A stretch of 32,000 nt of DNA, from positions 21,606-53,605 of the forward strand of contig JAWAHN010000003.1 of the NCBI GenBank assembly GCA_038889235.1, given 5' to 3'. A model generated the notes under the pieces. The model saw nothing but the letters and a program-made list of their open reading frames with translations. It ran no database searches and was not told where the DNA came from. Numbering within the stretch: the stretch's first letter is position 1; each line of letters starts with the position of its first letter. Shown piece by piece: positions 9,660 to 12,013 of the stretch. This DNA comes from Candidatus Jordarchaeales archaeon (GTDB lineage: Archaea; Asgardarchaeota; Jordiarchaeia; Jordiarchaeales; Freyrarchaeaceae). The position numbers and the translations under genes are program-made.

Positions 9660-10091
9660 TCACCACCAGAACAGAAGTTTAACTCTCGGCTTTGAAAGGT
9701 ACCAAACTGCTGCCAGTCCGAGGAAGATGACTGCTACTCCGCTTACGACGTTAAAGTAAGGGAATTTCTGTGAAAGCAAGGCGATGAAAGTGCTTCTCGA
9801 GGAAAGCTGGTCGGGGGAGACGAAAATTCCAACCAAGCCGGCAAGTACCATGAACGAGGAAAACACTATGATGATTAACCTCCCCCAGTTTTTGAGCTGG
9901 AAAAGAGCTACGGCGGAAACGCCAAACGTCAGTCCTACCGCGAGAAACATTGCGAGTAAAGCTGCGTCCAAAGGCTGGAGGAGACCCCAGCTAATCAGGT
10001 TTTCTAAGCCCCAAATAGAAACGGCGACCAAGAGAGCGCCAAAAGCGCAATATGCCAGGCTGAAAAAAGTGATCCCCTTAGTGCGCTCCAT
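9660..10091 (-). CDS. Hypothetical membrane protein (about 4 TM)
   Basis: Four hydrophobic segments; ATG at 10091 preceded by GGTGA; LKNWGR loop. Confidence 0.7.
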   Translation of the reverse strand: MERTKGITFFSLAYCAFGALLVAVSIWGLENLISWGLLQPLDAALLAMFLAVGLTFGVSAVALFQLKNWGRLIIIVFSSFMVLAGLVGIFVSPDQLSSRSTFIALLSQKFPYFNVVSGVAVIFLGLAAVWYLSKPRVKLLFWW

Positions 10092-10350
10092 GCCAATCAC
10101 CCTTTTAAATCAGAGTATACCACCCCGCTCAGGAACCTATTCTACTTAACTCCTCCGAAGCAAATGTAGCACCGGGCAACGTCCATTAAACATGAAATAG
10201 ATGGGCGGCTCTTCCTCTTTTTTATTTCTGTCGAACCTCCTCTCAGTCGGCAGTTTTCCACGTGAACATCTTTCTCGCTACGGGCAGCCCCCTAAAGGAG
10301 GAAATCTTAAAAAGGGTTTTTAATTCTTATACGGGTTGGGGGGGTTTGTA

Positions 10351-11397
10351 ATGTCATTTCTTAAGCCTCCATCTCCCGATGAGGTCTTCTCGATATGGGT
10401 TAGCGGGATGAGAGATGACGAGGTCGAGGAGCTTTTCGCCCGAAAGGATATGCCGTTCGATAGGTCAAGCGTGTCTGCCGCGGAATTTGTTAAGGAAGTT
10501 GACAGGAAGATCGCAGTATTTTTCATGTCAAAGGTTGAAACCGAAAGTTTAGAGTCTGAAAAGAAGGAGAGCAACTACGAAGGACTGCTAAAAGTTAAAT
10601 TCTACGAGTTCCCTAAGGGGAAGGTTTCACCCGAACTCAAGCTAGACTCTAGGCTCCCCATGTTCAACTCGCTAGAGAAAGTTGAGTGCTCTGAATGTGC
10701 CGGTAAAGGCTATCTCGAGTGCGATAAGTGCGGTGGAAAAGGAACTTTACCTTGCAGTGAATGTGGCGAGAGCGGAGAGGTTTCTTGCGATGAGTGTGAT
10801 GGATCCAAAGAGATTACGCTAACCCTGAGCGTTATTTCGAATGGAGAGGAAGTGGAGAAGGAGCTGAAAATCCAGTGCCCCACGTGCTTCGGCTCCGGAA
10901 AAGTGGTGTGTGGCAAGTGTGGCGGGCTCACCAAGCTCGTCTGCAACGAGTGCGAAGGAGACGGCAAGTTCCCCTGCAAGAAGTGTAAAGGCGCCGGCAT
11001 TGTTTTCTCATACAGCATCTCGCCCCCGCCTGTTTCAGGGAAAAAAGCTTACCTCATATACTCTAAGCCCGAGATAGATGAAGCTTTATCAGAAATGCTG
11101 GTGGATAAGATAAGCCAGCTTGAAGCCGTAAAGGTGAACGACTACAAACAACTTAACAAAGACGACCTAGAAGCCCTGCTCGGCTTCTACAACAAGGACG
11201 TAGACAGTAAAGCCAGCAGGGCGAGGAAACTTTTCGCTGAACTCGAAAAGAAAGCCGACAAGACTGGTGAAACACCACTCTACCCAATATACATATTCCC
11301 GATAGTAAGGCTGGACGTAGAAACAGTCAAAGGGAAAAGAATACAAGTGTTTGCGGTGGGGGGCGAGAAAAACTACACCACAATCACACTGCGATGA
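10351..11397 (+). CDS. DnaJ-type cysteine-rich Zn-finger protein without J domain (SSUH2-like architecture)
   Basis: Eight CxxCxGxG-type repeats at nt 10687-10998; no HPD motif or J domain. Confidence 0.8.
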   Translation: MSFLKPPSPDEVFSIWVSGMRDDEVEELFARKDMPFDRSSVSAAEFVKEVDRKIAVFFMSKVETESLESEKKESNYEGLLKVKFYEFPKGKVSPELKLDSRLPMFNSLEKVECSECAGKGYLECDKCGGKGTLPCSECGESGEVSCDECDGSKEITLTLSVISNGEEVEKELKIQCPTCFGSGKVVCGKCGGLTKLVCNECEGDGKFPCKKCKGAGIVFSYSISPPPVSGKKAYLIYSKPEIDEALSEMLVDKISQLEAVKVNDYKQLNKDDLEALLGFYNKDVDSKASRARKLFAELEKKADKTGETPLYPIYIFPIVRLDVETVKGKRIQVFAVGGEKNYTTITLR

Positions 11398-11617: not shown

Positions 11618-12013
11618 GTGGATTTAGACAAAGCAATCGTGGTAGTCGCTAGGCGCATGAATAAACGCGCAGAGGAGCTGAGAGGGAGAACTCCAATTGT
11701 CGAGGTAATCGATCATGTTATGAGCGAAACTAAGTGTAAGAATTATGAAGAATTCTTTAGAATTCTTCTTGAGAATCCAAGGGTGCTTTATGATCTGGCT
11801 TCACTAAGAGTGAAAAACGCGATAGTTGACTCGTTTTTAAGCATGTTGTTCACGGAAATTTTCTCGAGGTTTGGCTTAGGAGAGTTGGGCCCCCTCCTCC
11901 TCGAAGCTATAAAAGCCGGGGACAAGGCAGAAGTCAAAAAGATTTTTCTGAAAGTTGCTGAAGCCGTGAAGGAAGCAGAAGAGAAAGAAAGTAAAACCTC
12001 TATCGAAACATAA
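11618..12013 (+). CDS. Hypothetical alpha-helical protein
   Basis: 131 aa, E/K-rich, GGAGG RBS, upstream TTTTTATATA at 11548-11557; no family recognised. Confidence 0.75.
   Translation: MDLDKAIVVVARRMNKRAEELRGRTPIVEVIDHVMSETKCKNYEEFFRILLENPRVLYDLASLRVKNAIVDSFLSMLFTEIFSRFGLGELGPLLLEAIKAGDKAEVKKIFLKVAEAVKEAEEKESKTSIET

Follow-up and report, generated by a model that had tools for sequence, protein, structure and literature searches.

A J-less CR-type zinc-finger protein of Asgard archaea with a predicted rod of four nested zinc sites

The gene, its surroundings and its cysteine array

We analysed a stretch of 32,000 nucleotides of archaeal DNA (the window), in which the forward-strand frame at 10351–11397 encodes a protein of 348 amino acids (translation of 10351–11394, + strand). 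A TTG at 10336 offers an alternative start that would add five residues; homologues begin at the ATG. Upstream of this ATG, at 10309–10344, an A/T-rich box, TTTTTAATTCTTATA, lies ~20–34 nt before the start and is followed by a G-run, GGTTGGGGGG; judged by their letters and position, they are candidates for an archaeal TATA box and a ribosome-binding site, respectively. The gene and the parts of its product are the following:

10351–11397, + strand: whole gene, J-less zinc-ladder protein; 348 codons plus stop, an open frame with orthologues from 84% down to 22% identity
10351–10686, + strand: N-terminal half of the globular domain, residues 1–112; model helices 9–19 and 22–29 and a long strand 47–63; the profile of this part (A4) is family-specific
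10591–10614, + strand: conserved strand KVKFYEFP, residues 81–88, predicted docking site for the tip hairpin of a partner; F84 is kept in 85%, Y85 in 68% and F87 in 76% of 41 relatives
10687–10809, + strand: ascending rod arm, CxxC units 1–4, residues 113–153; matches the CR domains of DnaJ and BSD2
10810–10875, + strand: tip beta-hairpin, residues 154–175; model strands 154–163 and 166–175, kept in every shortened variant, with residues 157–164 in the predicted dimer interface
10876–10998, + strand: descending rod arm, CxxC units 5–8, residues 176–216; best sequence match is the E. coli DnaJ CR domain (1exk, residues 30–76)
10999–11394, + strand: C-terminal half of the globular domain, residues 217–348, with the end YPIYIFP...GKR.QVFAVGGE; model strands 217–236 and 307–347, helices 240–305

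All 16 cysteines of the protein lie within eight CxxC pairs, positioned at residues 113, 124, 135 and 146 in the first half of the array and at 176, 187, 198 and 209 in the second. The spacing is strictly 11 residues within each half, and 22 residues (154–175) separate the halves. An earlier note, made from the sequence of this DNA, had described eight CxxCxGxG repeats; the eight motif strings that it listed are letter-perfect in the translation, and the C-terminal string that it quoted is found there as well. The count of eight stands for CxxC units, but just five of them (units 1, 2, 5, 7 and 8) are strict CxxCxGxG motifs: the final Gly is absent from unit 4 (CDECDGSK) and unit 6 (CGKCGGLT), and unit 3 follows the pattern CxxCGxxG (CSECGESG). 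All eight pairs are retained in 34 of the 41 aligned relatives, at identities down to 22%, and the repeats are therefore not a product of chance.

The same note had read the protein as J-less and devoid of HPD, and both points hold. The tripeptide is absent from the sequence, the Pfam J domain (PF00226) gives no match in the protein, and TIGR02349 reaches 17 bits against a cut-off of 377. The DnaJ C-terminal domains (PF01556) give no match at E up to 1, either in the window protein or in the 41 relatives. Pfam sees the zinc array alone in the window protein, and this below threshold, with 24.1 bits for BSD2_CRD (cut-off 27) and 21.2 bits for DnaJ_CXXCXGXG (PF00684, cut-off 32.7); a search of the window's genome with PF00684 at E up to 0.01 gives no match at this gene. 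At E up to 1, all 41 relatives match DnaJ_CXXCXGXG, the best at 7.4e-13. The window protein is a J-less CR-type zinc-finger protein of the BSD2-like kind, not a J-domain protein.

The genome to which the window belongs (G000) consists of 8 contigs with 2.14 Mb and is 95% complete. Neither Hsp70 (PF00012) nor the J domain (PF00226) finds a match anywhere in this 95%-complete genome; as controls, both models match in 12 of 14 genomes. Since no Hsp70 or J domain is detectable, any chaperone-like role of the protein would be independent of Hsp70. The gene's neighbours in the window encode a Sir2 deacetylase, an ECF transporter and an alpha/beta hydrolase, together with a small membrane protein and an unknown protein of 131 aa. 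The 131-aa protein lies downstream (11618–12013, + strand), and a 146-aa membrane protein with a weak DUF1304 match lies upstream (9660–10100, − strand); these two recur near the gene in the single genome of the same family that was sampled (L015), and not in other lineages. Across 21 sampled loci the neighbours vary by lineage and none is universal.

An Asgard family and the reality of the gene

Searched exhaustively with HMMER, 1.84 billion representatives yielded 36 matches below 1e-30, all of 240–365 aa; named relatives came from a word-indexed search. Every relative with a taxon name is Asgard, the named lineages being Jordarchaeia/Freyarchaeota, Helarchaeota, Njordarchaeia, Hermodarchaeota and Promethearchaeota. 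Because the zinc array draws in any CR protein, we built flank-only profiles of the N-domain (A4) and of the C-domain (A3), with the window protein as the first row of alignments A2, A3 and A4. Run against 192 retrieved proteins, A3 and A4 recovered the zinc-ladder family alone. With the array masked, 72 proteins fell into one cluster, in which every taxon-labelled member is Asgard. In the window's phylum, the C-domain profile finds a match in 168 of 400 genomes, nearly always just one per genome (among high-quality genomes in 40 of 90, and in 38 of 85 genera); among 401 evenly drawn Pseudomonadota genomes it finds none. As far as these profiles can detect it, and wherever a label exists, the zinc-ladder family appears restricted to Asgard archaea.

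The family is recognized by W16 and the F-Y-x-F strand in the N-domain and by the C-domain end P-I-x-x-F-P ... G-K-K-F ... G, residue numbers being those of the window protein. The earlier note had considered an undescribed archaeal chaperone, and our searches agree that the family is undescribed: the flanks belong to no Pfam or NCBIfam family and no paper on the family was found. A possible flank family, Pfam DUF7895, gave just a 12-bit match, elsewhere in the genome. A wide distribution in bacteria, which the same note had named as evidence against its reading, is not seen at the level of the flanks, which were not found outside Asgard archaea. The search for related loci with profile A1 gave 7 loci. 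Two full-length members, L036 (JAPDJY010000047) and L037 (DATKTP010000226), carry the NCBI titles 'Thermoproteota archaeon' and 'Candidatus Deferrimicrobium sp.', respectively; these labels look wrong or outdated, and the GTDB-based set places both in the Asgard phylum. In one Asgard genome the gene occurs twice in tandem (L020, G127:C5:1338591-1340117), the copies being of 355 and 354 aa with eight units each. The partial record P0018 (NCBI MBS7250724) has 13 CxxC units through an internal direct duplication of ~97 residues; we considered it as a six-zinc variant and rejected this, as the duplication and the partial record probably mark an assembly artefact.

Environmental data bear on whether the frame is a gene at all. 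We found the gene stretch in hot-spring DNA runs of three studies, with 0.23 to 1.00 of sampled words. In RNA, the sediment metatranscriptome X5 holds two short contigs that are 97–98% identical and cover the gene body only, which falls short of proving transcription; X9 gave no matching reads, and neither did the raw-read metatranscriptome X7, of which ~3% of the run was read. The lack of raw RNA reads in this single sampled raw-read run is what could be held in favour of an open frame that is not a real gene, or of repeats that arose by chance or by faulty assembly. This reading has to face full-length orthologues in 168 Asgard genomes, the recurrence of the stretch in the hot-spring DNA of three studies, and differences from relatives that lie mostly at third codon positions. 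For a related contig of X5, 7 of the 8 listed in-gene differences are of this kind, a pattern that, as read from the codons, shows purifying selection on the gene. The conservation data refute the artefact reading, to which we give practically no credence: 10351–11397 is a genuine conserved gene of Asgard archaea.

Predicted fold, zinc ladder and antiparallel dimer

AlphaFold2 with 11 sequences gave a model with pLDDT 71.5; with the 41 relatives, pLDDT rose to 89, with pTM 0.67. In this model, the first 112 and the last 132 residues together make up a single alpha/beta domain, from which the array protrudes. Together with the Pfam comparison, the model bears out the earlier description of non-zinc domains on both sides of the array. 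When the model was searched against the PDB with Foldseek, nothing matched at E up to 0.001; the entries near the top correspond to the zinc array alone. A PDB sequence search with the N-domain profile aligned residues 13–76 (window 10387–10578) with residues 86–149 of yeast Vps28 at E 6.8e-4. We rejected this kinship: the match is probably due to chance, since Pfam VPS28 is reported for none of the 41 relatives and the secondary structure in the model is a different one. As Asgard archaea have ESCRT genes, the resemblance is worth a look.

DnaJ contains four CxxCxGxG units, with nested zinc pairing of units 1–4 and 2–3 and a beta-hairpin at the tip. In the model of the window protein, the short strands 121–123, 132–135 and 143–145 lie opposite 184–186, 195–197 and 206–208. 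The elongated four-Zn rod with nested pairing 1–8, 2–7, 3–6 and 4–5, which the earlier note had proposed, fits this predicted ladder, and it is also consistent with the repeated symmetric loss of units 2 and 3 together with 6 and 7 that is described below. The modelling thus supports a DnaJ-type hairpin doubled to four putative nested Zn(Cys)4 sites. In some relatives, units are degenerate; L021_6, for instance, has one Cys missing from unit 4, so that not every site need bind zinc.

Nested pairing implies that a shorter rod must have lost units from both arms together. The four-unit relatives retain units 1, 4, 5 and 8, are devoid of units 2, 3, 6 and 7, and keep the hairpin intact. In P0054 and P0056, unit 2 (CxC) and unit 7 (His for Cys) have changed together. 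Proteins with the 2+2 form are 315–326 aa long (L025–L027, L029–L031 and L033 of the Asgard family f20; P0055, P0057, P0060 and P0066). The best sampling is that of the Asgard family f20, in which 114 of 135 genomes are positive; each of the seven f20 genes read has the 2+2 form, and other families have the 4+4 form. A quick tree of the flanks needs four changes to account for the four-unit state, and an AU test rejects a single clade of four-unit proteins (p 0.0006, lnL difference 76), the group having been set by motif count and tested only after inspection of the tree. The four-unit form seems to have arisen more than once, and the ladder wiring gains good support from a rod that was shortened repeatedly, independently and on both arms alike. 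The step from four to two sites represents natural evidence on how the ladder is wired, and shows a length that can evolve in discrete steps.

We further folded two copies of the window protein together. The ipSAE was 0.63 in each of three runs, and none of three controls exceeded 0.00; the runs agree in at least 95% of their contacts, with a partner pLDDT of at least 84. By calibration counts that are only rough, as the score used an alignment of our own making, this ipSAE mark is reached by 20 of 30 proteins solved as same-chain pairs, against 1 of 23 among those solved as single chains. In the dimer model the rods run antiparallel, and the tip hairpin (157–164) of one copy touches residues 82–89 of the other; the latter residues lie in the predicted interface with the smallest expected errors. 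They overlap the K-V-K-F-Y-E-F segment, which holds the best-conserved non-cysteine positions of the family and which lies in the least confident part of the N-domain in the monomer model. Taken as a whole, the predicted interface shows no more conservation than the remainder of the protein (mean column entropy 2.62 vs 2.44). An antiparallel homodimer tolerates any rod length and fits both the 4+4 and the 2+2 form. From the two-copy model, the window protein probably pairs head-to-tail with a second copy; if this dimer is real, it would provide a simple rigid two-headed scaffold.

Proposed function and comparison with known systems

We tentatively propose, as a reading that falls a little short of probable, that the protein is a soluble, Asgard-specific binding or scaffold module that is free of Hsp70 and combines an alpha/beta domain with a doubled CR hairpin, four nested zinc sites and an antiparallel dimer; fold, dimer and zinc sites are predicted, and binding of a client is inferred. 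According to this proposal, (i) the N- and C-terminal segments of the cytoplasmic protein would co-fold into the small alpha/beta domain, (ii) a doubled cysteine-rich hairpin of the DnaJ/BSD2 type would project from this domain, (iii) the eight CxxC units would form four stacked Zn(Cys)4 sites (1–8, 2–7, 3–6, 4–5), capped by the beta-hairpin, and (iv) two copies would lie antiparallel, rod against rod, each placing its tip hairpin on the basal F-Y-x-F strand of the other. The resulting elongated dimer would carry a globular head at either end and would act without an Hsp70 cycle, binding or scaffolding other proteins in the manner of a holdase or an assembly factor.

The DnaJ CR domain has autonomous holdase activity, BSD2 is an assembly factor for Rubisco, and J-less CR-type zinc fingers are small client-binding modules. 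By analogy with the first two, our best guess for the zinc-ladder protein is that it serves as a holdase or as a scaffold that binds proteins. Gene order points to no particular client, as the neighbours differ between lineages and form no conserved operon. The net charge is not conserved either: it is −7 for the window protein and −3 to −7 for this protein and its Jordarchaeia kin (rod −5 to −7), and most relatives are strongly basic, with +11 to +35 overall and a rod median of +10. This flip of charge within the family argues against one common charged ligand.

The basic relatives suggest a different role, in which the zinc rod would bind nucleic acid, probably RNA, and the protein may work with a neighbouring DEAD-box helicase. 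Such a helicase (~890–1100 aa; DEAD, Helicase_C and DUF5814) adjoins the gene in 9 of the 21 sampled loci, from three Asgard families (L021–L023, L025–L027, L030, L031 and L033), and is arranged head-to-head with it in 8 of the 9. The helicase gene order may, however, be shared by descent, so that the nine loci are not independent. Moreover, the window protein and its closest kin are acidic, the CR-type fingers known from DnaJ and BSD2 are modules that bind proteins, and the window has neither a helicase nor a DRG-type GTPase near the zinc-ladder gene. We regard a nucleic-acid-binding factor as unlikely. In the f20 loci, a DRG-type GTPase (MMR_HSR1 + TGS) is found further out.

CxxC is also the classic oxidoreductase motif, and the pairs could serve as thiol-disulfide centres or release zinc upon oxidation in a redox-active or redox-sensing protein. 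Oxidative zinc release or a thiol role has been proposed for the DnaJ CR domain, for plant Orange and for fls485. The authors of the fls485 study propose thiol-disulfide oxidoreductase activity (PMC2838759), and disulfide reductase activity is reported for the CR protein Orange (PMC9225386). Against this, the 11-residue register is strict and, like the Gly pattern and the ladder model, fits structural zinc sites; the loss of units in pairs is as expected of such sites, and the source is an organism from a hot-spring metagenome that we assume to be anaerobic. Taken together, we consider a redox function very improbable and retain the Hsp70-free binding or scaffold module as the proposed role.

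Among known proteins, the likeness to eukaryotic SSUH2 was raised by the earlier note. SSUH2 is the homologue of C. elegans ssu-2, and the human protein is implicated in dentin dysplasia. Its tail and entry motifs may resemble those of the window protein. Human SSUH2 (fls485, C3orf32) is described as a putative chaperone of ~39 kDa with at least four CXXCXGXG repeats and additional truncated ones (PMC2838759). Compared by this published description, the two proteins are alike in being J-less, of similar size and proposed chaperones, with a central CXXCXGXG array between non-zinc regions; they differ in the array, where the window protein has eight units, and in range, as SSUH2 is eukaryotic and the zinc-ladder family is Asgard-only. 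The window protein could thus be an archaeal orthologue or ancestor of SSUH2, an overlooked eukaryotic signature protein whose whole module of N-domain, array and C-domain was inherited from an Asgard ancestor. The agreement in layout and the restriction of the family to Asgard archaea at flank level speak for this; no search, however, gave a flank match to SSUH2. Profile searches of 5.8 billion proteins (with the single protein, with 41 rows at E 1e-5 and with 36 rows at E up to 10) returned no SSUH2-named record, none of 30 proteins looked up from the best 150 of 1490 HMMER hits is eukaryotic, the PDB search matched no solved structure under the SSUH2 name, and the literature search found no paper naming both Asgard and SSUH2. 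We judge the orthology doubtful, and hold it similarly unlikely that the zinc-ladder family is the archaeal branch of an SSUH2 superfamily whose module passed from an Asgard ancestor to eukaryotes. If true, the disease-linked human SSUH2 would gain its first structural and mechanistic model in the antiparallel dimer and a rod stepping by two zinc sites, and a confirmed link would make the family an experimentally tractable prokaryotic model for this human protein.

Eight CxxC units are also found in bacterial 'CR-type domain-containing' proteins (for example Acidithiobacillus ferrivorans WP_014029357, 350 aa, and Marinimicrobia P0076), which share the overall layout of an N-region of ~110–130 aa, an array with a central insert and a C-region. 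In an Atlas feature search, bacterial eight-unit clusters are nearest, with a score of 0.95; the C-domain alone scores at most 0.80, an uninformative level. The bacterial proteins differ from the zinc-ladder family in their flanks, which have no detectable similarity to it, and many have membrane segments. The flank HMMs gave no matches to any other retrieved eight-unit protein, and hhalign against ten other groups gave probabilities below 6%, with the exception of the P0082 group. P0016, P0063, P0089 and their relatives form a separate family of ~288–300 aa with eight acidic CxxC units, which is common in metagenomes; the cluster represented by P0016 has 122 members, and the flanks are unrelated to the zinc-ladder family. 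An Atlas cluster (285 aa) that looks like this P0016-type family is labelled 100% Uroviricota, and the ~290-aa family may therefore be phage-encoded.

The P0082 group is a membrane-anchored Asgard sister family of 370 to ~730 aa, in which both flanks are colinear with the zinc-ladder family (hhalign E 1.1e-4 (56%) for the C flank and 4.9e-4 (32%) for the N flank). The two families have the F-Y-[DE] strand and the G-K...F..G tail motif in common. The P0082 proteins differ in being longer and in having C-terminal membrane segments; they occur in 5 of 400 Asgard genomes and are absent from the window's genome.

The closest characterized relatives of the array are the CR domain of type I DnaJ (1EXK; PF00684), the best PDB sequence match, and BSD2 (6EKB; PF25436). 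With the DnaJ domain the window protein shares CxxCxGxG units, the nested-zinc hairpin and the beta-hairpin at its tip; in contrast to DnaJ, it has eight units and four predicted sites instead of four units and two sites, and it is devoid of the J domain, HPD, the G/F region and the DnaJ C-terminal domains, in a genome that has no detectable Hsp70 for client hand-over. BSD2 consists of little beyond a two-zinc hairpin, whereas the hairpin of the window protein is twice as long and is inserted in a globular domain of 240 residues without a Pfam family, and its client must be assumed to be different. Compared to both systems, the zinc-ladder protein combines a CR hairpin doubled to four predicted zinc sites with an uncharacterised globular domain, is present in many Asgard lineages, and occurs here in a genome without a detectable Hsp70 system.
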